Shown here: piece after piece, positions 1 through 59,592 of the stretch
How the letters are laid out: every line of letters begins with the position of its first letter
Numbering within the stretch: the stretch's first letter is position 1
DNA from: Flectonema sp. DT1601
Taxonomy: Eukaryota
Direction: 5' to 3'
Assembly: GCA_964019425.1 (NCBI GenBank)
Contig: OZ025782.1
Span: 186,001 to 250,000 of the forward strand
DNA: 64,000 nt
Notes under the pieces: generated by a model
What the model was told of the DNA's origin: nothing
Seen by the model: the letters and a program-made list of their open reading frames with translations, nothing else
Databases searched by the model: none
Position numbers and translations under genes: made by a program

Positions 1-3000
1 TCACCACCAACATCACCCAACCTCTTCATACCAAGCACACCTGATGCTAGTAATATATCAAGGAAGTTTAATGACCAGTAATCAACCTTAATCTTTATCT
101 CATCATCAGTGCATTTATTTAATGTTGATATGGTCTTTGGTGTACTAGAGTATCCTCCACTTGGAATCTGAGATACTTTTATTTTAAACTCTCCGACTGG
201 ATTCTCAATAGGTGTTGTCATCTCTTGTGATTTGCTTATTGGTTTTTCTATAAAAGTTTTAACGCCCAGTGAAGTGATGTAATACCATGTACTGTGTTGG
301 TATTTCTCATTTATAATATTTTGAATCAGCTTCGACAAATCCACTACTATTTCACAATGAATAAATATAACGTCATCAATGAAACGGTTGAGATGGTCAG
401 ATGGAGAAAAGTCATTCTTCACATCAATCAAAACATACAGTTTACTACTAGCTGTCCAGTATTTATGAATATCTGATATGGTTGAAGAGCTAATTTTTAT
501 ACAATTAGACGGAGCAAACTCAATGAGTGAGTCTGTTGATGAAAATACAAAATTCTTTCTATCAGAAATCATCTGTTCATCCCTTGACAGTTCCTCAACA
601 GTACTCAATTGCTGTTTATTTATTTGATACTTTCTCGCTTGGTTGTCAGTTGTTGGGGCGCATTCAAATCCCCTCATTGTAATTACCTCATGTGATCGTC
701 CTTCCTTTTTGATTGAAAAGTCAACCTTCGTCGTACCATTAAACGCAAAAGGAGTTTTTTTAGCAAGAGTTATATACCTATTAACTGAATTGTTATTATC
801 AATTAAATATTCAGGTGTGTGAACAACCATTTCTTGGATACCAATAGGGATACCACTGCACTGCAAAACTGATGATAATTGCGTGCAGCAGTCAAGAGCA
901 GCAGCTGAAATAGGACCATTGCTATCAACATAGTCAACTATACTAGCTAAGAGTTCTGTGTTTGAGTTAACAATAACGTGATCAACTGCTTTAAATTCAC
1001 TAGTGTAGTGAAAGCCTTCGTTAGCAAGCAGTCTGTAGAGCTCTTCGTGTGACATCTTTGAAATTAGATTTGAAGCAGTGAAATTACTTTCAATCTGTTT
1101 CAAAGCTCCTAAGCGATCATCGTTAACACTCTTCTTGACATTTGAAGAAGTATACAGCTCAGCAGTGCAGTGTAATTTCTTGTTGTTTTTAACAGATGAA
1201 TGAATGCTAATGGTCGGTGGTGTTATCGATGTATCGATCTCACAGATTAATGATATCTGAGCATCGTTTTCTTTGTTATTCATCATCATCTCATAAGAAG
1301 GAATGTCTAATGCTTTTATAAAATTAATATTCCTCAAAGTAATGATGTCTGGAACTCTACCTCGATTCTTAAAATCAGAAATGACATCACAAAGCATGAC
1401 GTGTAACCAAAATGTTGCCGGTACGATCATTGATCCGTTGAATGTGTGCGATCGAAGATATGTCAATCCGCAGTGTTGCCAAGCATATGGATCATCTGTT
1501 CCGGGTAATTTCATTAAGTCTGAATGTTGTGGAGATAGGATGGAACTTGGCAGTGACAAAGCTCTTCCATACTTAACCCAGTCAATTATCTTTGTAACAC
1601 AAATAGTTGAATATTTACCAATAATGTTTGGAAGTAATTTCATAACAAAGTCAAGATCTTGAGTTCGATTTAAGAACATTTCTCCTTCCTCAGGTTTGAT
1701 GTTAAATCGTTCAGACATTCCAACTTCCCAACCTCCCCATTGAATTGAAATTACCAAAGCTGATGTTTTAGTAGTGTTTACGTGTTGCTTAGAATACGTG
1801 TCAATATAGCCGTTAGCTGCCGCATAGACACCCTGACCTGCCGGAGCGAATATCGAACTTGACGAACTACATAAGAATAAGTTAACTTGTTCATCACTTC
1901 CAAACACTGAAAGTAGATTTTGAACACCGTGAATCTTAGCAGCAACCTGTGATGTGAGTTTGTTGTTGTCTTGAGGGATGTTTTTAATAATTTGATCTGA
2001 CACAACACCCGCACAGTGGTACACTGAGACCTTTGAATTACAGCTGCTAACAGTTGAGTATAGTTTTATAATGTCTTCTTTACGAGACACGTCTCCAGTC
2101 AAGAATTCAATACCGTCTTGTTCCGACTGCCCAGATATCTTTTTACAAATCTCCTGCTTCGATTCCTGAGATAGAATCGTACGTCCCATTAAATATATTT
2201 TCGAAGCCATTCTATTCGTAAAAAACCACTTTGCGATTTCCAATCCCAATCCCATGGTACCACCTGTTATAGCGACTACTTGAGAACTGTCTACAGGCAG
2301 TGATTGATTTAATTGAGGGACTGCAGTTAGAGTTGGAGTATACCACTTGTTGTTAGCAGCGTCAAACATATATTCATCTGATGAATGGTTTAACAGTTTT
2401 AATTTATTTATAATTGTTGACAGTATATTAGGTTGATTGTTTTGTATTAGAATCCGAGACATTCTAACGCTATTAAATTCCTTTTGGACGACTCTTGAAA
2501 AAGCAACCAACGGAGCGTAGTGAGGATCACTAGCTGGAACTACAACAAATACCGTGACAGGTATGTCTTGTGCTGTGGACATCGCTCCTATCTTCTGCAC
2601 GAGTGTGATGAAAGTCCCCAGCAATGACGTTGTCTCAGCTGCTGTTGTCATTTCCGTTGAATGCAGACTTCCACTTATTACTAATGTTCGATATTTTTTA
2701 ACGAAATCCAACACATTAGTATCATCACAGCAAACAGCCCCGAGAGGGAAGTCTCTGTCGGCTGTTTGTTTTATGTAGTAAAGAGGTGTAATACACTGAT
2801 ACTGTTGAATGTTAGTATTAACAATGTCCGTGAGCATGTTGTTTATTTTATATTCGTACTCAACAACATCTGGTTGCTGATATAGATTCGTTTCCTGAGA
2901 TAGCACATGGTTGTTATCAATCTTTTTGGTTGGTGTTTCTGGCCAACAGAGTTGCCTGTCCCATGATGGAGGAGGTAGGTCAGTTATATGAAAGTTACCG

Positions 3001-6000
3001 GATTGATATTTATATTGCAAAACTTTTTCATAATCAAATACACATCCTGATGCCCACAACTGACCAATAGATGACCAAAACTCCGTTGATTCAAACTTTG
3101 AAGAATTCTCAGACGGTCTTGGAAGTACTGATGTTGTTGTTGACTTACAACTCTCACTGATACATCCTTTTAGAAGGGATGGTCCACATTCAATCACAGT
3201 GGCATTTTCAGGAATTAATCCTGCGGCTTTACTAAATAAGACTTTCTGAGTTAAATGATTAACCCAGTACTCAACAGAACACATTTTATCCACTGACAAT
3301 ACTGTACCAGTAACAGAAGATAATAACTCACACGAATGCACTGGTACACTGAATTCATTTTCTGAGAAGAATTCACGTAAGCTGTTAACTCCCTCAAGCA
3401 TTGCGGATGTGTGAAATGCGGTTTTTACGGCTAGCCTCTTACTGGTCCAAGGTTTATTATTTTTAGTAAAAGTCTCAGTGAGTGAGTCCAGAGCTGATGA
3501 GGGTCCTGCGATAACACTCCTGAGAGGTGAATTGATGCATGCGATTTCAACTTTTTGATCATTCCCGGAGTTGTATTCCGACACCAGAACCTCAACTTCG
3601 CTGATATCACTCCCAGCGACCGACAGCATTCCTAATGAAGTTCCCTCTGCGATTGAATCACTTATCTGTCCTCTCTTCTCAACAAATCGAAGAGCTGTTT
3701 GAAGACTAAAGACACCAACGATAGTAGCACAAACAATCTCACCTAACGAATGTCCTATTAAATGCGTTGGGTTGATATTAATTGATTCTTTTAGTAAGAT
3801 TGCTAAACAATACTCAACAGAAAATATAAGAAGTTGCTCATCTCTGTTGGTATCCGGAGTATGAGAGATTGACCTCCCCAATGCAGCTTCACAAGACTTA
3901 AATAACTCATCAAAAGCTGGAATTTCCCTTCTCAATTGAATACCCAAATTCCTGTAACAACCACCTTGTCCAGGAAAGCATAACACTAGTGTTTTTGAAG
4001 AAGTTTTTTCAGTGAAAAAAAATGAATTTTTAGAAGTGACCACAGCTCTAAAAGGATATGTTGGTCTTGTTGATAAAGTGTACTCTAAGTCAGCAAACCG
4101 AACATCCGTATCTAGTTTGTCGGAAAAGTAAAGAGATCTATACTGTTCACAACTTGCTTTCAACGCCTCTTTAGAATGAGAAGATAATAAAATAGTCGCC
4201 TTGTCTGACATATCGATTTCTGATCTGTCGTCAGAAGTAATACTCTCAGGTATGTATTCAGAACATATTAAGTGAACATTTGTACCACCGACACCAAAGC
4301 TTGATACTCCACAAGATCGTATTGATGTAGAAGGTACCTCCCAGTGTTCTGATTGTTTCTTAATTGAGATATTCTGCAACTCTGCTACAGGAGAACTGAA
4401 ATTAGCTGTCGGTAAAAGAGTTTTGTGATAAAGAGAAAGTGTTGCTTTGAGAAGACCAATACCACCCGCTGCAGTGTTCACATGTCCAACGTGACCTTTC
4501 ACGGAAGACAATGAGATGTTATTTGTTGGATATGAATCTTGAATAGCTGCAAGCTCAATAGGATCTCCGACTGCTGTACCAGTACCGTGTCCTTCAATCA
4601 TGGAAACGTTTCTTACTGTTTCGGTGTCAGTGTCTCTTTGTGCTTTTTTTATTGCTGTGACCTGACCAAGTCTTGATGGGGAATTGTAGCTGTGTTTTTG
4701 TCTTCCATCATTCGATATTCCGATACCCTTTATAACTGAGTATATACGATCACCATCTTCAATTGATTTATTTTTTGGTTTTAAGATAAACGCGACAGCG
4801 GCATTACCAGGGACAGTACCCGATCCTGTCTTATCGTATGGGTGACATTGACCTGTTACTGACCATACCATTCCTGGTTGATAATTATAACCTGCATCTT
4901 GTGGTACTTGAATAGAAGCAGCTGTTACAAGAGCTACATCACATTGATTATCTCTTAATGATGACACTGCCGTATGAATTGCAGTTAGAGCACTACTGCA
5001 AGCAGTTTGAATTGTTTGTGAAGGCCCACGTAGATCTAATAAATAAGAAATTCTCGTGGCGGTGTAATCTTTGTCATTTCCAACTTCTAATTCCCAATAC
5101 AGTGCTGGGTTATCAAATCTCATATTCAAAGTATCACCTCCCTTGTCTGTCATTATGTCTGTGAGATACTGTGGAAGACTTGCTCCTGCTGAGAATACTC
5201 CAACATTTCTGGTTGGATTCTGTCTAGTGTACGTCTGTGATTTCGAGTTACGCATACTTTTTGATGGTAGTCTATAAGCATATCCGGCATCAACTAACGC
5301 TTCGTATCCAACTTCACATACAATTCGTTGATTCGGATCCGTTAGTAGTATTTCTTCTTTTGATACTCCCCAAGCATTGCAATCAAAATGTGTTATGAAC
5401 TCTGCTGCCAGAAGAATACCTCTTTTCGGTTTCTTCTTAATAGGAACTGTTAAATCAGTACCTTTTTTAAGAGAATCGAAGACTGTTTTAATATTATTAC
5501 CTGAGAGTGTATTATCAGGCCATCTAACTGCAAGACCGATAATTGCAATATCTCTATCCAGTTTTGTGTTTAGAGGAAGGTCGTCTTGTTGAGATTGTTC
5601 TTTGTTAACAGATTTTGACGCTAGGAGTTCTCTCTGTGATCTGATTGTTAAATTATCCATGATGTCAGCAACACGAACTCCTATTGCTGCCGCGAGTTTT
5701 GTTATTATTAGAGAATGCCCTCCAATGTCGAATATTGTAACGTCATCACCGCAGTCAATAGCAGCTTCTCCAAGTAATTCTATCCATGCTGATAGAACGG
5801 CGTCTGCTTGATGAGGAATTTGATTTCTGTGATCGAATGGAGCAGCAATTCCTTCAATGATTGACCGTAACTGTCTAGTGTCTAACTTACCAGTTGGTGT
5901 TACTGGGAATGATGACATAATAAAGTAAGCTGAGGGAATATGCCACTCTGGCGATGTCTGTTTTAGAAACAAACTCAGCTCTCTAGCTACAGCTGGTTGT

Positions 6001-7391
6001 ACAGCTGTCGGTTCAGCAACTTCATCAAAAACTCTAAAACACCCAATTAATGAATCACTATCAGAACTAACTAACACAGCAGCATCAACAACCTGAGAAT
6101 GATTAATTATATTACTGGGTATCTGTCTAAGACTATTTTGTATTGATGCAATGTTTATTTTAAATCCTCTGACCTTAGCAGTTTGATTGAGTCTGCCTTT
6201 CAAAACGAATACGTTTTTAGGTCCAGATTCGGTTTCAATTCTTAACATCTCAACATGATCTGAAGTAAACCATGTTCTCCTTCCATTGTGATCACGAAAT
6301 GAGTTGTCAACCGAGCCTAAATAACAAGCATTGTTAGGTACACCAGATCCGGAAACTAGCAGTTCATCGTTTAGGATATTCATAGTAACTCTTGGTGTAA
6401 TAGGGTTGCCTACTGGACTGAATTTCATTCCAGTCGATATCAGTTTTTCAGTTATGAAAGGAGTAAGACAAAAAGCTGCAACATCACCAGCTTCTGTCGT
6501 CGATAACAAATTAACTATCAGCGTGTTGGGTAGAATCTCGTGAAGCATCTGAACTGTGTCCAACGGAAGACCTTCACCAGACATTACTAACATTTTCATA
6601 GTGTCTTTTATTGATGATAAATATTTATTTTGTGAAACAGCCCTAAGCAGTGATGGTGTAAAACAATCAATTCTTGTAGCCTTGTGTTCAGCGAGATACT
6701 CAACAAGCATCGTAGAATCAATAACGACATCATCGGGGATGATTAGAGTTCGTTGACCACAACAGAGAGCCATCCACCAATACCATAAAGGGAACATATT
6801 GACTGCTATTATGTCATTGTCATCCATTGGGAATTCTGTTTCTCTCCATCGTAGCATGTTAGATAGCTGCTCATGAACCATTATAACACCTTTTGGTTTG
6901 CCCGTTGACGTGCCTGTGGTCCAGTCGACAAACACCGCTGTGTTTGAATTTGGAACATATCTCTTGTCCATTGTTGAATTTGATTTAATCTTCATTAGCT
7001 CCACGACTGAGTGTCTTTCTATGTGGCAGTCGTCTGGGATGTTTTCTTCTTTAAAATGATCGTCGTGTAATAATAATTTTGGTTTCCATGTTTCACAAAT
7101 ATGTTTTCTTTGTATTAACGTACTTCGCTTATCAATCATTGTGAACGGTACTCCCGCAAATGAACATGCGAGACATGCAAGAATCCATTCAATACCTTTT
7201 TCACAACATATCGCAACATGAGTTCCTGAATCAGGTAACACTGATGATATTCGAACAGCAAGCCTAACTAATTCTTCATACGTTAATGTGATGTTTTTAT
7301 ATATTACTGCAGTTGATTTTGGGACTCGCTCTGCTGATTGTCTTATCAATGTCGGGAATGGTACCAACTCAGTGTACCCATCTTCTACCAT
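1..7391 (-). CDS. Hybrid NRPS-type I PKS, 3'-partial (A-T-KS-AT-KR-DH-ER..., >2460 aa, continues past window start)
   Basis: ATG at 7391 (MVEDGYTELVPF); the frame reaches base 1 with no stop seen, which explains its absence from the ORF track. A domain: LTYEEL, DWTTGTSTGKPKGV, GRLNQTAKVRGFKI, PVTPTGKLD. T domain: DIGGHSL (Ser ~5713). KS: NDKDY...QTACSS (Cys ~4999), HGTGT, KGHVGH. AT: FPGQG, GHSLG (~3748), TAFH. KR: ITGGTMGLG, HCAGV, YAAAN, IQWGGW. DH: HTFNGSMIVPA (His ~1447), LDCCTQ. ER start: SLNFLDILLASG. Confidence 0.93.
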   Translation of the reverse strand, partial: MVEDGYTELVPFPTLIRQSAERVPKSTAVIYKNITLTYEELVRLAVRISSVLPDSGTHVAICCEKGIEWILACLACSFAGVPFTMIDKRSTLIQRKHICETWKPKLLLHDDHFKEENIPDDCHIERHSVVELMKIKSNSTMDKRYVPNSNTAVFVDWTTGTSTGKPKGVIMVHEQLSNMLRWRETEFPMDDNDIIAVNMFPLWYWWMALCCGQRTLIIPDDVVIDSTMLVEYLAEHKATRIDCFTPSLLRAVSQNKYLSSIKDTMKMLVMSGEGLPLDTVQMLHEILPNTLIVNLLSTTEAGDVAAFCLTPFITEKLISTGMKFSPVGNPITPRVTMNILNDELLVSGSGVPNNACYLGSVDNSFRDHNGRRTWFTSDHVEMLRIETESGPKNVFVLKGRLNQTAKVRGFKINIASIQNSLRQIPSNIINHSQVVDAAVLVSSDSDSLIGCFRVFDEVAEPTAVQPAVARELSLFLKQTSPEWHIPSAYFIMSSFPVTPTGKLDTRQLRSIIEGIAAPFDHRNQIPHQADAVLSAWIELLGEAAIDCGDDVTIFDIGGHSLIITKLAAAIGVRVADIMDNLTIRSQRELLASKSVNKEQSQQDDLPLNTKLDRDIAIIGLAVRWPDNTLSGNNIKTVFDSLKKGTDLTVPIKKKPKRGILLAAEFITHFDCNAWGVSKEEILLTDPNQRIVCEVGYEALVDAGYAYRLPSKSMRNSKSQTYTRQNPTRNVGVFSAGASLPQYLTDIMTDKGGDTLNMRFDNPALYWELEVGNDKDYTATRISYLLDLRGPSQTIQTACSSALTAIHTAVSSLRDNQCDVALVTAASIQVPQDAGYNYQPGMVWSVTGQCHPYDKTGSGTVPGNAAVAFILKPKNKSIEDGDRIYSVIKGIGISNDGRQKHSYNSPSRLGQVTAIKKAQRDTDTETVRNVSMIEGHGTGTAVGDPIELAAIQDSYPTNNISLSSVKGHVGHVNTAAGGIGLLKATLSLYHKTLLPTANFSSPVAELQNISIKKQSEHWEVPSTSIRSCGVSSFGVGGTNVHLICSEYIPESITSDDRSEIDMSDKATILLSSHSKEALKASCEQYRSLYFSDKLDTDVRFADLEYTLSTRPTYPFRAVVTSKNSFFFTEKTSSKTLVLCFPGQGGCYRNLGIQLRREIPAFDELFKSCEAALGRSISHTPDTNRDEQLLIFSVEYCLAILLKESININPTHLIGHSLGEIVCATIVGVFSLQTALRFVEKRGQISDSIAEGTSLGMLSVAGSDISEVEVLVSEYNSGNDQKVEIACINSPLRSVIAGPSSALDSLTETFTKNNKPWTSKRLAVKTAFHTSAMLEGVNSLREFFSENEFSVPVHSCELLSSVTGTVLSVDKMCSVEYWVNHLTQKVLFSKAAGLIPENATVIECGPSLLKGCISESCKSTTTSVLPRPSENSSKFESTEFWSSIGQLWASGCVFDYEKVLQYKYQSGNFHITDLPPPSWDRQLCWPETPTKKIDNNHVLSQETNLYQQPDVVEYEYKINNMLTDIVNTNIQQYQCITPLYYIKQTADRDFPLGAVCCDDTNVLDFVKKYRTLVISGSLHSTEMTTAAETTSLLGTFITLVQKIGAMSTAQDIPVTVFVVVPASDPHYAPLVAFSRVVQKEFNSVRMSRILIQNNQPNILSTIINKLKLLNHSSDEYMFDAANNKWYTPTLTAVPQLNQSLPVDSSQVVAITGGTMGLGLEIAKWFFTNRMASKIYLMGRTILSQESKQEICKKISGQSEQDGIEFLTGDVSRKEDIIKLYSTVSSCNSKVSVYHCAGVVSDQIIKNIPQDNNKLTSQVAAKIHGVQNLLSVFGSDEQVNLFLCSSSSSIFAPAGQGVYAAANGYIDTYSKQHVNTTKTSALVISIQWGGWEVGMSERFNIKPEEGEMFLNRTQDLDFVMKLLPNIIGKYSTICVTKIIDWVKYGRALSLPSSILSPQHSDLMKLPGTDDPYAWQHCGLTYLRSHTFNGSMIVPATFWLHVMLCDVISDFKNRGRVPDIITLRNINFIKALDIPSYEMMMNNKENDAQISLICEIDTSITPPTISIHSSVKNNKKLHCTAELYTSSNVKKSVNDDRLGALKQIESNFTASNLISKMSHEELYRLLANEGFHYTSEFKAVDHVIVNSNTELLASIVDYVDSNGPISAAALDCCTQLSSVLQCSGIPIGIQEMVVHTPEYLIDNNNSVNRYITLAKKTPFAFNGTTKVDFSIKKEGRSHEVITMRGFECAPTTDNQARKYQINKQQLSTVEELSRDEQMISDRKNFVFSSTDSLIEFAPSNCIKISSSTISDIHKYWTASSKLYVLIDVKNDFSPSDHLNRFIDDVIFIHCEIVVDLSKLIQNIINEKYQHSTWYYITSLGVKTFIEKPISKSQEMTTPIENPVGEFKIKVSQIPSGGYSSTPKTISTLNKCTDDEIKIKVDYWSLNFLDILLASGVLGMKRLGDVGG

Positions 7392-14670: not shown

Positions 14671-17600
14671 CTATCTCACTGCTCCATCGATTTCCGATTC
14701 AGTTTCAGTTCGGCTATTGCTAGCTGACGGTCTCTCTCTGTCAGAACAAGATGACGATGATTTTTGTAATTCCCTTTCTATTCTCTCTGTTAAAGAACCT
14801 CCTTGAGGAGATGTTAGAGATGGGACTTGAGAGTTACCTGAATTCGGAGAATGTGTTGGGGTTTGTTTAACAGTACTATCCAACTCTGTGGCTGTTTCAT
14901 TATCTCTCTCATCATCGACTTTGATGGGAGCAGGTGACCAAGGCGACTGTGGTTTCTGCATTGAACCAGAACCAACTGTTGATCTCTTTGATGACACTTC
15001 TCTATCTGTAACATACGTACTCGTGAGACTGACATCACTTCCTGAAGTAGAGCAACGTCTGTGAATGCTGTTTTTAACAACAGATTCTTCATCTGAAAGA
15101 CCTGACATAAAATCTAAACTAATCAAATCGATAAATTCTCTCAAACTGTAGATAATATCATCCTGATCTTCACACGAAGTCACATCCACTCCGATAGCTT
15201 CAGCAGCAATAATCAGTTGAATCAGTCCAACGTGTGTAAAGAAAGATGCTCCGTCCATGTAACTTGTTATTTTATTAGCTAGTTCATCGCATAATTCACC
15301 TTTTATTTGGTAGTGGCTTGGATTTGGTAGTATCGAACTTGCAATCGCAGCAACATCAACTAGCGGAAGTGAATTAAAGTATTTACCCCACGTTGTTCTG
15401 GTTAATTCTCGATCTTCATCTCGAGATAACCAGAATTCTTTTATTAATCGAAGTGATCTCATGAGCATGGCGCAACCAAATATGGTTCCGAAGACGATCA
15501 GTGGCCCCCACATACTTTCTATTGACATTCCGTTTGTTAGTTCTTCATCCTCAACGACTTGTGTTACTCCACAATCAGGTGAAATCGCATGGACGTGTTT
15601 TGTTCTTAAGTTATCAATAATTCTGTGTTTTTTTTTTTTTTTTTTAAAAGTATTATTTAAATATTATATAAATAAAAAACAGAACAGTAGAATTATTAAA
15701 ACACACACACCTATCATTCAACAAGGTCATCGTTCCGTACGAGATAGCATCAACAAAACGACTTTCATAAGGAAGAGCAAAAGCTTTAAATAATTGTAAT
15801 TCACTGATGTCTGGACCTCTCAATTCAATTTCACAATCGGTTTGAAAAGGGAAGTAGAGCGTTGATGCTAAAGCAGCATCGATATTTTTTGCTTTGAGTT
15901 GAGATATGGCATCTGAATCGTTCGCGTAAGTCGTATAACCGGTCATTCGTAGACTAGGACCTGTCAAGATCGATTCCGTCGCAGACCCTTTAGGGACTCC
16001 TAATTTTGACATTCCTATCTTTCCAGTTTGAAAATCCTCAAAAGAATCAACTGGATACACTGAACTCCTCCTAGTTAAAAACGTCGTCAGCTCTGCAGTA
16101 TAAGAAGCTGTAAACACAATTGCAAAAAAAAACAAACCCGCCACCAACAATCTCCCAGAATGGGTTACCGGAGCGTTCTCATTAACCATAAAGAAAGATG
16201 TGAATGATAAGTATGAGACTGCTAAGAATCCTTCAAATCCACGGGGGATTAACTCATTTCGACCTGCTTCAAGACACCACAAACCAATTCCAGACATGAT
16301 AATTACAAATAAGGCTGCTAAGTATACTTCAGTTTGCATTGGAGTTAGAAATCTCCAGAGATCTACTCTGTCTGATGTTGGACGTTTTATCATTAGTCGT
16401 TTTGTATCAGTGGTCCAGGGTTGGGAAAATTTCAACAATCGTTGCCTGTCTGGAGTAATCGTTAAAGCAACCGCGAATATATCAAACTCACCATCGCCAA
16501 CTTGTTGTAATGTGTATCCATCTACGCAGTTCTTGTGATCACATTGATAACAAGAAATAAATGGACTATACGTAAATCCATAATTAGAACTAAGCGTGTC
16601 AACAATATCCCATAAAATACCCTTACCAACGCCAGATGATGTTCCGTAAGAAAGTCCATCATCTCGACAAGGAAAGATTATTTTTAAATGTTGGTTTCGT
16701 AGAACATCAGTCGGAGTTGGTCTCGAACCTCCAGGCCATTGAATACGTTCTGAGTCAACCCAAAGATCACTGCTAAAATTATAACCGCCGATGACGTTCC
16801 ATTGTGATGCTCCTCCGAACTGCTGTAAGTTCAATAAATCATAGTGTGATCCGACAAGAAACTCACTATCTAGTAACCTATCTAGTTCAGGAATGATATT
16901 CGCCAAACTGTAATCCCATTTCTTGGTAAAGACATCATGACATAAATTATTTTGATACGGATTCGTATGTCCTTGCGACGCATCCAGAGATTTCAACAAC
17001 AACGTCATCGACGAGAATGCCGCAATATAACTCGGGTTATCCTTATACGTTTGATACTCTGGCGTTGATATTAAATCAGGAGGAGTATACACTCTTGGAT
17101 AGAGTGAGAATATACCTTGAATATCATTATTTGAGGCCTTAAGAGTGGTGAACGATGATGGATTATCAAGCGGTAATCCTTCTGACGCAAACCAAACAGC
17201 TCCACGCCCGATGAGAGGAGGCTTAATACTTGAAGCAGCTGTCAATACCTGAACAGCTAACGCACCTGTTCCTAAAATGATATAAACTTGTGCCATGGAG
17301 CGCTTTGATGCATCTTCTAGTGTAGCAGTAACATTCAGCTGAAGAGGTATCGTTGTCACTTCCAAACCAGCTTTATAACCCTGTGAAATCATAGCTTCAA
17401 CAAGAGACAAACCGTTGTCTTGTTGCTCGTAGAAAGCCGTTGCCTTGTTCCATCCGAGTTTTACAATGAATTTTGATATTGCCTCAGCTTGATTCAAGTC
17501 TGTCAAAACAGTCCTTCTCAACGTTGAGTACAATAATGAGGTTGCAATGTCAGAAGCGCTTGCACCTGTCATCATGGGTATACCGTGAATGCTTGCTAAC

Positions 17601-17887
17601 CATCCGGCTAATTTTACTTCTTGCATACTATCAGGACCTATGATCCCAACGACATCTCCTTGAACTATTTCAGAACAAATTGCCTCAGCTGTACTAACTG
17701 TCGCTGAAGGTTTTCGTATTACGGGAGTCCAGGTAGAACTCTTTCCGAATTCTCTAACTGCAACATCTACGGCTGCGGATTTGTCTCCGTTCCAAAAACT
17801 TATAATCTTTTGTCCCGTAACATTATTAACAAAGCATATCAATAGTAGATACAACAGTAATGGGAAGGTAAAGTACTGGCGTCGCAT
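14671..17887 (-). CDS. Ionotropic glutamate receptor-like channel; exons 17887-15711 and 15622-14671 (1042 aa)
   Basis: Signal peptide, ANF/ATD domain (VVGIIGP), S1 (LTITPDRQRLLKFSQPW), M1-M3 with SYTAELTTFLT, S2. Intron 15710-15623 (GT...AACACAG) joins in frame to ORF 14671..15528, which supplies M4 (MWGPLIVFGTIFG) and a Ser-rich tail. Confidence 0.88.
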
Positions 17888-45911: not shown

Positions 45912-46370
45912 TTATGCCTCATCTGGAGCACCAGTCTTCTGACGAGCCTGTTCAGCAGCTCCAAGGAACTTGACTCTGATGGCACCGTTTCCGTAACAAA
46001 TGAGAAGGATCCAGTTGATAACCTGACACATGATGATACCTGCTGCTGCTGCACGTGCTGAGTCTCTAATCTCAGAATCGATGTTGTCATTGTCAGCCAA
46101 CTGAAGCCAGAACTCAGTCTGAGTCATCAAGTAAGCTCCAGCCATGGCACAGAATCCAACAATTACTTGAGACCATTCCTCAGCCTTGTCAGTGAACACT
46201 GCTACAATCACGCAGACCAACAAGAAGAATTCAAACCAACATCCCCACCACAGAGGTCTCATTGCTTCATTGGACAGGTTTGCCTTGTCATGGTAAGCTG
46301 CGGTACCCGCCAACAACAGAAGCCAGGCGATCAAAGTGAGGACTAGAAGAACGATGGTAACAACACGCAT
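45912..46370 (-). CDS. 4-TM membrane protein, LCI1/Sho1-TM-like (copy 1, 152 aa)
   Basis: ATG at 46370; near-identical to 47238..47696; motifs LTLIAW..AG..KAN, WWGCWFE, AAAAGIIMCQVIN. Confidence 0.8.
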   Translation of the reverse strand: MRVVTIVLLVLTLIAWLLLLAGTAAYHDKANLSNEAMRPLWWGCWFEFFLLVCVIVAVFTDKAEEWSQVIVGFCAMAGAYLMTQTEFWLQLADNDNIDSEIRDSARAAAAGIIMCQVINWILLICYGNGAIRVKFLGAAEQARQKTGAPDEA

Positions 46371-47237
46371 TTTTTGTTTTTTAAAAGTGTTTTTTTGGAT
46401 AACTAAATAGCTGTGAGGAAAGTTACAATAAGTAAAAAGCTCGGTGACCAACAAATAATCCACGAGAATATCCTTCGAGAGGAGGCCGGCTGGTGTGTGC
46501 CTTGGCAGGCTGGTACCAAATTGATGCGCAAAAATGACACGGCCAACAAGGATCTTAAAAAACAACAACATACACGCTATTTTTGAAATTGTATCCTGTA
46601 AGAGAATGGGTTGGTTAATCGGTTTGTATATTTTTTAATACAACCAGGCAAATAGACCAATCTGAAGGCAATGCGAGTAAATTTGGAGACGACAGAGACA
46701 ATTGACGTGTTCTCTATCTATTGACCATGGTCATTAGTTGGTTCAACGACTTGCTCCTTCTGTTGATCGAGAAAAGAGAGGAATTGCTGATAGAAACAAC
46801 AAAATAATTTGTTTCTAACAATGTTGCTTAACGAGCGATTAAGTTGGAATAAAACAAAACGAAAAGAGAGAAGAAGTACATGTGACGGAGACGACAGACC
46901 CCTTTCACAAGTTCTACATGCTTTACATTAGGGTCAGCTTCGCGTATCTTTTAATTTTCTTTTTTCTTTGAACTTTCTTGTACAGAAAATGCCCCCCCGG
47001 ATGGGTGACTAACTACATTTTGAGATTTTTCAAACAAGATTCCTTCTCTTTACACTTTAATTCATGATCAGAGAAAAGGAATAGTTTGTGTCGTAGTTTA
47101 TTAGCGTAACGATACTAATTGTTTTTTTCTTCTTTTTCTAAACTTAAACAGACGAAGTGACCCCAGTCATTGAATGGAAATAAAAATTTAAGAAATGAAA
47201 AATTTCACTTCTAAATAGTGGAGCAGAGTGAAGTTAT

Positions 47238-47696
47238 TTATGCCTCATCTGGAGCACCAGTCTTCTGACGAGCCTGTTCAGCAGCTCCAAGGAACTTGAC
47301 TCTGATGGCACCGTTTCCGTAACAAATGAGAAGGATCCAGTTGATAACCTGACACATGATGATACCTGCTGCTGCTGCACGTGCTGAGTCTCTAATCTCA
47401 GAATCGATGTTGTCATTGTCAGCTAACTGAAGCCAGAACTCAGTCTGAGTCATCAAGTAAGCTCCAGCCATGGCACAGAATCCAACAATTACTTGAGACC
47501 ACTCCTCAGCCTTGTCAGTGAACACTGCTACAATCACGCAGACCAACAAGAAGAATTCAAACCAACATCCCCACCACAGAGGTCTCATTGCTTCATTGGA
47601 CAGGTTTGCCTTGTCATGGTAAGCTGCGGTACCCGCCAACAACAGAAGCCAGGCGATCAAAGTGAGGACTAGAAGAACGATGGAAACAACACGCAT
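47238..47696 (-). CDS. 4-TM membrane protein, LCI1/Sho1-TM-like (copy 2, 152 aa)
   Basis: Tandem duplicate; I see 3 nt differences (one T/S change, two silent) and a shared ~170-nt downstream flank. Confidence 0.8.
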   Translation of the reverse strand: MRVVSIVLLVLTLIAWLLLLAGTAAYHDKANLSNEAMRPLWWGCWFEFFLLVCVIVAVFTDKAEEWSQVIVGFCAMAGAYLMTQTEFWLQLADNDNIDSEIRDSARAAAAGIIMCQVINWILLICYGNGAIRVKFLGAAEQARQKTGAPDEA

Positions 47697-54582: not shown

Positions 54583-55278
54583 TTAAACAGAATTCAACGT
54601 ATCTAATGAATCAGGTTGCTGTTTAATTATCAATTCTTCGATCTGTTCTTTTTCATCTTCGCAATTGATGTCTTCGAGTTCGTGTGTTTCTCTGAACTTC
54701 AGAGTTGGTATTCTAATTCCGTATGATCGACAACCATTCCAACCCTGACATGTTAGTATAAGAGATAACGCAATTACTGATATTGTGTATTTAGTTGTTT
54801 TCTCAAAAGGATTTAACTGCTCTGGAAACCATATTCTTGTCGTAAAGTAGAACGGCATTAGACACAAACCAACAACAAGTAAACCTTTCCAAAATATTAG
54901 CGGAAATGATCGAACTGATTTCATACGTGCATTTGCGATGTTCAATTTTATGTCAGTTTTTGGAAGATCAGCTACTTCTCTATGATTAAAATATATCTGA
55001 AAACCCACTACTGGAATAACAGCAACAACAGACATACCAAACGCAAATGTCACTGAACAACCCAACCGTATGAGCAGTGCAGTAACCAGTCCCACAACAA
55101 TTTCAGCAGACACTCCGCTGATAAGAAGACTTCTTCGATGAGCTTCAAACACTTCCTTCTTTCTCTTTTCACACGTAATTATTCTTCCAGAACCGAATCT
55201 TCCATTTGGATAGTAGATTGTGCTTCCGTCTTCCTGATCAGCGAAGACAGTTTCTACCATTCTGTCCAAGAATTCCAT
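54583..55278 (-). CDS. 4-TM membrane protein, paralog A
   Basis: MEFLDRMVETVFADQEDGSTIYYPNGRFGSGRII...; paralogous to 58662..59357; start chosen by alignment of the two copies. Confidence 0.7.
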   Translation of the reverse strand: MEFLDRMVETVFADQEDGSTIYYPNGRFGSGRIITCEKRKKEVFEAHRRSLLISGVSAEIVVGLVTALLIRLGCSVTFAFGMSVVAVIPVVGFQIYFNHREVADLPKTDIKLNIANARMKSVRSFPLIFWKGLLVVGLCLMPFYFTTRIWFPEQLNPFEKTTKYTISVIALSLILTCQGWNGCRSYGIRIPTLKFRETHELEDINCEDEKEQIEELIIKQQPDSLDTLNSV

Positions 55279-55307
55279 TTTATTATTTTGTACTCTTCTA
55301 AAAGATA

Positions 55308-56735
55308 CTCCACAAGACCGTGACTGTAGTATCCGATCAGTCAAACTACCCTGCCACTGATTTTCACTTTAACAGCGAGCTATTAGTATATATTATTATG
55401 TCAGCTGTTTAAAAGAGAGGGAAGGGCTAAGCATGCGATGTCTTCAACTTCAGAGTTGGTTCTTCTATTTTGTATGATCGACAACCATTCCAACCTTGGT
55501 GTATTAATGTGATGGAGAATACGATTATTGATATTGCGAATGTTGTTGTTTTTTGAACTCCACGCAGTTGATCTGGAAACCAAATTCATTATTATATCTC
55601 CCATTCTGTCGAAAAGCAATAATTAAAGAAGAGGAGAGACTTAATTCAGACGAGGAAAGAAGCCTCGAACACGAGGAGAGGATATAATCATCTCATTGAT
55701 AATAACAAGCGTTTTGAATAAGATCTTTTCTTTGGATCCATCATCATTATGGTTAAATATTAACAATTAGTTACACCTGACCAATACCGAGTATAAGATT
55801 CATCCCCAGTTTGTCCGAAGCATTATTGTAATGAGGGAGTACCGAAAAAGCTTTATATAAAAGTACCTCAAAAATTGGGAAGCGCGCAGCCCTTTCACAG
55901 CAACAAATGAAAACAAAAGGTTCACATATATGATGAACAGTCAGTTTATCGCTGGATCAGTATGCATTTTGCTAAGAAAGTTAGTAGGAAATAAAAATAT
56001 TGTTGGGATTGTCAAACAAACGAATAAAAATAATTCGTTCAAGACATCAAACAAATAAAATAAATTAAACAAATAATTAAATAAGTTAGTATTAAAGTTC
56101 GTAAGACAAGTTAGTTTATTATTATAAAATATTTACTTTGAAGTCATGTAAGTATCGACCTCTTGCAGGCAAACTCAATGGCTAAAAGTAATTCTATTGA
56201 TACATAGCATCATTAATTTTAGAACAGAAAAAGTGAGAATAAGAAAATTAGAGATTAGTAAAAAGAAAAGTATTCATTTCTGCAGTTTCCTAATATCAAA
56301 AGGGTAATAGAATATGTAGTTTCAGGCCTTAATCTCATATTACTTGTCCCTTTTTAGGCCTTCATCAGTAAGTTCTAAGGGACTTCAGTTAGTTAGTATT
56401 AATGGTTATCAGTCATAAGAAGGGGAGAGGGAGGGAAAATTCAATCGAATGCAAAAGTTCGTAGGTATTAGGAAGTTCTAAGGGACTTCAGTTAGTTAAT
56501 TAGCTAGCAGTATTAGTAAGTTCTAAGGGACTTCAGTTAGTTTAGTTAGCAAAATACAAACTGATGACTACGAGGGGTCTGGGTAGCCCGCATCAGTAAG
56601 TACCCAATCGCGAAGATTGTACTTTCACAGCTTCGGCTGGAAGTGATCGACTTCCAGCCTCCACCTTGCCCAGAGGCTAACAGGTTGTAAACAACTAAAG
56701 AAAATAAAAGAGAAATGATCTGGGAGTGGGGGGGA
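55308..56735. repeat. Segmental duplication, copy 1 (copy 2 = 62876-64000)
   Basis: Near-identical over more than 1.1 kb apart from a 307-bp block present only in this copy. Confidence 0.9.
55437..55584 (-). pseudogene. Captured fragment of the paralog B coding sequence (also at 63005-63152)
   Basis: Nearly identical to 58746-58912 with a short internal deletion. Confidence 0.85.
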
Positions 56736-58661: not shown

Positions 58662-59357
58662 TTAAACAGAATTCAACGTATCTAATGAATCAGGTTGCTG
58701 TTTAATTATCAATTCTTCGATCTGTTCTTTTTCATCTTCGCAATTGATGTCTTCAAGTTCGTGTGTTTCTCTGAACTTCAGAGTTGGTTCTTCTATTTTG
58801 TATGATCGACAACCATTCCAACCTTGGTGTATTAATGTGATGGAGAATACGATTATTGATATTGCGAATGTTGTTGTTTTTTGAACTCCACGCAGTTGAT
58901 CCGGAAACCAAACTCTAATTGCAAAGTACAACAGTATCACATACAAACCAACAACAAGTAAACCTTTCCAAAATATTAGTGGAAAAGATCGTACTGACCT
59001 CGCTCGTGCATTTGCGACATTCAATTTTATATTTGTTTTTGGAAGATCAGCTACCTCTCTTCGATTAAAATATATTTGAAAATAAAATATCGGAATACAA
59101 GCAATAAATGCCATCCCATGCGCAAATTCCACAGAGCAACCCAACAGCATCAGCAGTAAGGGACTAACTCCTGTAACTACTCCAATACACACTCCGCTGA
59201 TAACAAGATTTCTGCGATGAGCTATAAATACTTCCTTCTTTCTCTTTTCACACGTAATTATTCTTCCAGAACCGAATGTTCTATTTGGATAGTGGATTGT
59301 GCTTCCGTCTTCCTGATCAGCGAAGAAACTTTCTGTGAATCTGTCCAAGAATCTCAT
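58662..59357 (-). CDS. 4-TM membrane protein, paralog B
   Basis: MRFLDRFTESFFADQEDGSTIHYPNRTFGSGRII...; last ~40 aa identical to paralog A. Confidence 0.7.
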   Translation of the reverse strand: MRFLDRFTESFFADQEDGSTIHYPNRTFGSGRIITCEKRKKEVFIAHRRNLVISGVCIGVVTGVSPLLLMLLGCSVEFAHGMAFIACIPIFYFQIYFNRREVADLPKTNIKLNVANARARSVRSFPLIFWKGLLVVGLYVILLYFAIRVWFPDQLRGVQKTTTFAISIIVFSITLIHQGWNGCRSYKIEEPTLKFRETHELEDINCEDEKEQIEELIIKQQPDSLDTLNSV

Positions 59358-59592
59358 TTTATATTTTTTTTTCGTGTATACCACACTAATTTAAAAAAAG
59401 AAACCTTAACTCAAACAGTTTCTTTGCAAAGCAGTAGTGCCGGAAGCATCATCTCCAGGCTTCTTAGCAAAATCCAAAAAAAAAAAAAAAAAGATAAATA
59501 TGTGTATTAATTGAGGGGATGCTTAAGTTGACATAATTCAACTCGAAAACAGTTTAATTATCGTCGAGTGGGGATTCAGGCGCCGAGCGCGT

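Follow-up and report, generated by a model that had tools for sequence, protein, structure and literature searches.

A one-module NRPS-PKS hybrid gene

The window, the whole 64,000-nucleotide stretch of contig OZ025782.1 from Flectonema sp. DT1601, contains at its edge a single open frame on the minus strand (3..7391), which by translation and Pfam encodes residues 1 to 2463 of a 3189-amino-acid hybrid NRPS-PKS. The full-length protein (P0264), found with the pocket segment of the adenylation (A) domain as the query against 1.84 billion representatives, is identical to the window ORF over the first 2463 residues and has the domain order A-T-KS-AT-KR-DH-ER-T-FSH1. Pfam identifies A-T-KS-AT-KR-DH in the window ORF, and the last 726 amino acids (the remainder of the ER, T2, and the FSH1 hydrolase) fall past the window edge.

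All domains lie on the minus strand. The A domain (residues 12 to 509; 5865..7358) is defined by Pfam PF00501, with an AMP-binding match spanning residues 17 to 343 (E, 2e-36), and by a structural model and fold search. The other domains, placed by Pfam and orthologue alignment, are the carrier domain T1 with Ser560 (5607..5804), a ketosynthase with intact C798, H935, and H970 (4251..5555), an acyltransferase with S1215 and an xAFH-like motif that we take to be of the malonyl type (3141..3986), and a ketoreductase with K1819 and Y1856 (1710..2282). The latter has D1799 as the third residue of its LDD motif and is presumably B-type-like. The dehydratase (642..1469) is only 20 to 25% identical to its orthologues, and its H1982 and D2167 are conserved in all six proteins aligned. 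The start of the enoyl reductase (3..119) follows from the domain order of P0264 and the alignment.

The 13 neighboring window ORFs that were scanned form no pathway cluster around the gene and include no DMSP-pathway genes; eight have eukaryotic housekeeping Pfam matches, one matches a DUF, and four have no match. Elsewhere in the window, an ORF whose domains are ANF_receptor and a ligand-gated ion channel (15653-17887, minus strand) resembles an ionotropic glutamate receptor gene and probably continues beyond an intron. A small membrane protein with a weak DUF6350 match is encoded twice side by side (45912-46571 and 47238-47696, minus strand), the copies being nearly identical over 152 amino acids, and two diverged tandem copies of another membrane protein, the first without a Pfam match, lie at 54583-55344 and 58662-59384 (minus strand).

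Orthologues and integrity of the enzyme

Five further proteins match the pocket segment in one stretch at 47 to 58% identity among the best 150 of 20,175 matches, a set crowded by multi-module NRPSs in which weaker orthologues of other protists may be hidden. All five have the same domain set, A-T-KS-AT-KR-DH-ER-T-FSH1, and four come from the diplonemids Diplonema papillatum, D. japonicum, Sulcionema specki, and Lacrimia lanifica. Judged by these orthologues, the host of the window gene is itself likely a diplonemid. The D. papillatum orthologue is KAJ9458496.1 (“PKTS1”), a different protein from the FAS-I of this species. Homologue searches by word matching, which had the A domain as the query, covered proteins of 953 to 2720 amino acids and were blind to orthologues of 3000 or more, returned only multi-module NRPSs at 23 to 34% identity. 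The PDB sequence search and Atlas gave only generic A domains, the diplonemid-specific A5 pattern had no occurrence in JGI metagenomes, and a further 80 loci were all ≤29% identical.

A first-pass annotation had described the A domain as lacking the amino-acid-binding Asp and as resembling betaine- and DMSP-activating domains, with the caveat that its divergent A5 and A7 motifs could reflect degeneration. The unusual forms of A3, A5, A7, and A8 recur in all six diplonemid proteins at 40 to 47% identity, and E300, D378, R400, and K502 are invariant across 48 aligned sequences. The KS Cys/His/His, AT Ser, KR Lys/Tyr, DH His/Asp, ER nucleotide motif, both carrier serines, and FSH1 Ser/Asp/His are likewise kept in all six. 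Odd motifs conserved together with every catalytic residue are therefore not decay, and the caveat can be set aside. The product of the gene is an intact NRPS-PKS hybrid with one module, common to diplonemids. The earlier proposal that the enzyme may extend and reduce its starter is supported by a module whose catalytic residues are intact in 6/6 proteins. Within the A domain, invariant columns among the six are concentrated in the pocket segment (56/161, versus 16/139 and 35/200 elsewhere). An AlphaFold model gives a confident A-domain fold (mean pLDDT, 86.7), and all of the Foldseek matches listed for it are NRPS A domains, in agreement with the structural assignment.

The A-domain pocket

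The motifs quoted in the first-pass annotation are present in the minus-strand ORF that starts at 7391. The A3 P-loop (residues 157 to 168; 6888..6923) is one residue longer than usual in 5/6 orthologues. The A5 motif (residues 294 to 304; 6480..6512) contains E300 and D303, the A7 motif (residues 374 to 378; 6258..6272) keeps D378, and the A10 catalytic lysine is K502 (5886..5888). The A4 region (residues 180 to 225) has no FD motif, and the short loop within it (residues 196 to 206; 6774..6806) has no amino-binding Asp; thus, the absence of this residue was borne out. A strand at residues 239 to 243 (6663..6677) carries a one-residue insertion with D242 and C243, which are found in 6/6 diplonemid proteins and in none of the 42 other aligned proteins.

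In ATRR, the head-group site is reported to consist of F201, W204, W270, and E304 (10.1101/559534), and the features reported as common to BurA and ATRR are a shorter, hydrophobic loop that lacks Asp235, together with an acid (D606 in BurA; PMC7496086). BurA and ATRR pocket residues were mapped here from these published numbers rather than from their sequences. On that mapping, F200 and W203 correspond to ATRR F201 and W204, V269 (6585..6587) lies at the W270 position, and D303 lies at the position of ATRR E304 and BurA D606, with spacing identical to that in ATRR (+3, +66, and +100). Three of the four ATRR pocket residues are thus conserved, and the W270 site is Val in all six proteins. The aromatic cage proposed earlier is therefore present in part (F200 and W203) and incomplete at its third aromatic. 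Within the ATRR/BurA group, the W270 site varies (W, Y, F, I, L, H, or V). The ATRR-type pattern given in the first-pass annotation does occur in the A-T-R-R proteins P0236, P0237, P0239, and P0246. The diplonemid A domains have features of their own: a Val where ATRR has W270, Tyr-Trp-Trp following W203, and the inserted, conserved Asp242.

The short loop separates these domains from ordinary ones. Counted from the A3 lysine, a Phe at +33 together with a Trp or Tyr at +36 is seen in 6/6 diplonemid domains, in 156/188 members of the ATRR/BurA set (a partly circular count, part of that set having been drawn by a DNA pattern requiring F..W), and in 0/981 other NRPS A domains, a count free of that circularity (1003 gathered, 22 dropped for an absent A3 anchor). 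The equivalent position is at +41 in 783/959 ordinary domains; the diplonemid loop is five residues shorter and Asp-less, as in the ATRR/BurA group. Seventeen ordinary domains found by regular expression to contain N.F..W were rejected, having normal, Asp-bearing loops. In what we take to be PheA numbering (used here for positions 235, 299, 330, and 331), the acid lies at position 330 rather than 331 in 6/6 diplonemid domains, 177/188 group members, and 24/959 ordinary domains. Among FVDSxW-type NRPS domains, it is at 331 in 16/22.

Sampling of the ATRR/BurA group

The best E-values listed in a tblastn search of plasmids belonged to rhizobial TE-A-T-KS-AT-KR-T proteins. A query with one of these rhizobial proteins brought in bacterial relatives, A-T-R-R proteins of the ATRR type, and members from oomycetes and prasinophytes. 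Pattern scanning of genomes contributed A-T-R proteins and a two-TE group that includes L051. An exact scan for Burkholderia thailandensis burA returned nothing, and its place is taken here by BurA-type orthologues of other bacteria.

Several members merit description in their own right. Locus L051 (5986-18022; Noviherbaspirillum sp. ST9) is read as a bur-like cluster because genes for an aldehyde dehydrogenase, a PLP decarboxylase, and KARI flank a two-TE BurA-type synthase. Rhizobial plasmids carry TE-A-T-KS-AT(-KR)-T hybrids with an ATRR/BurA-type A domain (L001, 10735-18009; L002, 10846-16476), and many Mesorhizobium copies lack the pocket Trp or the KR. We rejected the Mesorhizobium TE-A-T-KS-AT-KR-T proteins as BurA orthologues; they are treated as a separate subgroup and are not so listed in the rows consulted of the table in the BurA TE paper. 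The prasinophytes Pycnococcus and Pseudoscourfieldia have a TE-A-T-KS-AT-KR hybrid of the ATRR/BurA group (P0255 and P0414 to P0416), in whose A domain position 330 is Thr rather than an acid and position 322 is Glu. Proteins of about 1000 amino acids with an ATRR-type pocket, including Trp at 299, occur in many Rubrobacteraceae, Desulfobacteraceae, and SAR202/Dehalococcoidia (L003 to L122); a carrier follows the A domain, often followed by a reductase as judged by a crude motif. From these features, they are possible bacterial betaine reductases. The atrr genes have been called exclusive to eukaryotes in the ATRR preprint (10.1101/559534).

Relation to the ATRR/BurA group

In the careful tree (45 rows), the diplonemid A domains form one clade that is sister to the ATRR/BurA group (support, 100/98) and lies outside the ATRR/BurA core (100/99). 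The sister placement recurs in three quick trees (SH-aLRT, 96, 94, and 98), and the diplonemid stem is long (1.25 to 1.67). These trees contain stand-ins in place of the characterized B. thailandensis BurA and A. nidulans ATRR sequences, and the extra columns at the short loop were probably removed from them by the gap filter. In AU tests, grouping with FVDSxW-type domains gave a P value of 0.0495 in one test and 0.103 in another, so that this placement is rejected only weakly or not at all; grouping with BurA-type domains is not rejected (P = 0.26 and 0.42).

Similarity scores differ with the segment compared. By whole-domain BLAST, the best match for 5/6 diplonemid domains is an ordinary FVDSxW-type NRPS domain, a class gathered here by similarity to the query. 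BLAST with the pocket alone favors the ATRR/BurA group (13 to 20 of the top 20), and a pocket profile built from 60 ordinary domains, chosen as the nearest to the query, outscores the group profile for 3/6. Taken by sequence, the diplonemid A domains are probably a sister subfamily to the ATRR/BurA group. The claimed likeness to betaine- and DMSP-activating domains thus stands as regards the short loop, D303, and kinship in the trees, and it falls short in that the domains are placed beside the group and not inside it.

Proposed function

By analogy with BurA and ATRR, we regard it as probable, short of confident, that the megasynthase loads an onium acid, extends it by two carbons, reduces it, and releases it. 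For the loading step, the pocket likewise leans toward an onium acid starter. Among onium acids, DMSP is the most likely candidate, and its choice in particular has slightly less than an even chance of being right. F200 and W203 would hold the methylated head through cation-pi contacts, with D303 pairing with the head-group charge and K502 with the carboxylate. ATRR, with Trp at 270, is reported to be size-selective for glycine betaine and to reject DMSP and beta-alanine betaine (10.1101/559534). Val at the equivalent site suggests a roomier pocket, in which the small V269 would accommodate a three-carbon acid, either DMSP or beta-alanine betaine, in preference to glycine betaine.

The starter would then be transferred to T1, the KS would condense it with malonyl on T2, and the B-type-like KR would yield S-gonyl-T2, the same product as in BurA, for which a single extension is reported (PMC7496086). 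The LDD-type Asp shared by the BurA-type and diplonemid KRs, together with the reported S configuration of natural gonyol, counts for this reading. The FSH1 hydrolase would free gonyol or, once the DH and ER had acted, 5-(dimethylsulfonio)pentanoate. With the DH and ER intact, the expected product is saturated and goes beyond gonyol, namely, 5-(dimethylsulfonio)pentanoate, and gonyol would therefore need early release or another route; we consider free gonyol as the product doubtful. Conversion of glycine betaine to L-carnitine was rated low, as a B-type KR would be expected to give the other enantiomer.

Metabolite data are available from D. papillatum: DMSP, gonyol, and several betaines have been reported from its axenic culture, with no gonyol synthase known in this species. 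This makes the diplonemid enzyme a candidate source of the gonyol reported in diplonemids. The medium was seawater based, and for that reason gonyol or DMSP may have been taken up from it; another synthase in D. papillatum may also be the source. The metabolite table of this species does not include 5-(dimethylsulfonio)pentanoate.

Counted against an onium starter are the Val at the W270 site in 6/6 proteins (versus Phe in BurA-type orthologues and Trp in ATRR), the long stem of a clade outside the group of characterized types, and PtNRPS1 of Phaeodactylum tricornutum, whose pocket of the same type, with the cage residues Phe and Glu, is reported to serve tryptophan and aryl acids, including salicylates (PMC13194791). 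These points feed the main alternative, a minority prospect that we take seriously, in which the A domain loads an uncharged or nonmethylated starter (beta-alanine or a different amine acid, tryptophan, or an aromatic acid) and the module builds a reduced polyketide of an unrelated kind. The third cage aromatic is missing, and the diplonemid-only Asp242 could bind an amine. The nearest outside group consists of FVDSxW-type NRPS domains, which we take to be beta-alanine activators. However, the loop deletion and the acid at 330 are those of the ATRR/BurA group and not of the FVDSxW type, and two of the three characterized group members are reported to need a charged methylated head.

With an onium acid starter, an iterative module could instead produce a long-chain omega-sulfonium or omega-ammonium fatty acid and no small osmolyte. 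Single-module eukaryotic reducing PKSs are often iterative, and a module that has KR, DH, and ER with their catalytic residues intact and that ends in a hydrolase would suit such a product. We consider this improbable: BurA, the closest functional model, extends once, and no long-chain omega-onium lipid was found among the D. papillatum supplement rows searched. Least probable by far is a degenerate A domain, a fatty acyl-AMP ligase (FAAL), or an ordinary alpha-amino-acid domain, for which the nonconsensus A5, A6, and A7 motifs and the amino-acid adenylation NCBIfam score (122 bits against a cutoff of 317) could be cited, against the recurrence of these motifs in six divergent proteins, the four A-domain residues invariant in 48 sequences, the missing alpha-amino-binding Asp, and a quick tree in which three FAAL domains fall far from the diplonemid ones, the reverse of the clustering named in the first-pass annotation as a refuting outcome.

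Our preferred reading, one extension of an onium acid, can be taken further, at a strength that is tentative and on balance unlikely to hold in every part: a diplonemid megasynthase with a new A-domain subfamily and FSH1 release would extend DMSP into gonyol and then into the unreported saturated 5-(dimethylsulfonio)pentanoate, with the dinoflagellate “ZmaK-like” hybrid as its counterpart. If true, a heterotrophic protist makes or diverts DMSP via a megasynthase, a divergent onium-loading A domain is added to those described, and the A-T-KS-AT-KR-DH-ER-T-FSH1 layout of dinoflagellates gains its first functional lead. Diplonemids are abundant heterotrophic marine protists, gonyol is said in the D. 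papillatum paper to affect marine DMS and methanethiol release, and D. papillatum is described as genetically tractable.

Comparison with known systems

The A-domain type itself is already known from ATRR and BurA. No publication on this enzyme in diplonemids was found in the literature searched, which lay mostly outside subscription journals, and the sole characterized gonyol synthase in the literature found is the bacterial BurA (PMC7496086). Other papers drawn on are PMC8611851, PMC8283056, PMC5725682, PMC9359912, PMC9027781, PMC11050029, and PMC7221440.

PtNRPS1 resembles the diplonemid enzyme in its ATRR-homologous A domain, its N-x-F-x-x-W loop, and its acid at the E304 site, but it is an A-T-R-R protein with Phe at the W270 site and a reported substrate of tryptophan (PMC13194791). 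ATRR of Aspergillus nidulans has the F201, W204, and E304 equivalents at identical spacing, whereas its W270 equivalent is Val in the diplonemid enzyme and its A-T-R1-R2 reductase architecture contrasts with the PKS module (10.1101/559534). The dinoflagellate “ZmaK-like” hybrid (Amphidinium carterae comp26075 and Karenia brevis contig 10632) is, by description, alike in having A, two T, KS, AT, KR, DH, ER, and FSH1 domains. Its domain content has already been published, with the function given as unknown, and K. brevis contig 10632 is listed as A-KS-AT-DH-ER-PP-(TE).

The BurA type (L051 and L044; PMC7496086 and PMC9428774) shares the A-T-KS-AT-KR core, the short Asp-less loop, the Phe/Trp pair, the acid at position 330 (D597 in L051 and D303 here), and the LDD-type KR Asp. 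It differs in that the diplonemid enzyme has neither the N-terminal TE nor the intramodular TE, reported in BurA as the releasing TE-B (PMC9428774), and adds a DH and an ER with catalytic residues and a C-terminal FSH1 to what in BurA is a KR-only module. BurA-type orthologues have Phe at 299, where the diplonemid enzyme has Val, and the diplonemid domains are not grouped with theirs in the best trees, a grouping that the AU tests do not reject. The diplonemid enzyme thus has the architecture of neither BurA nor ATRR, yet, by analogy, it likely works like BurA.
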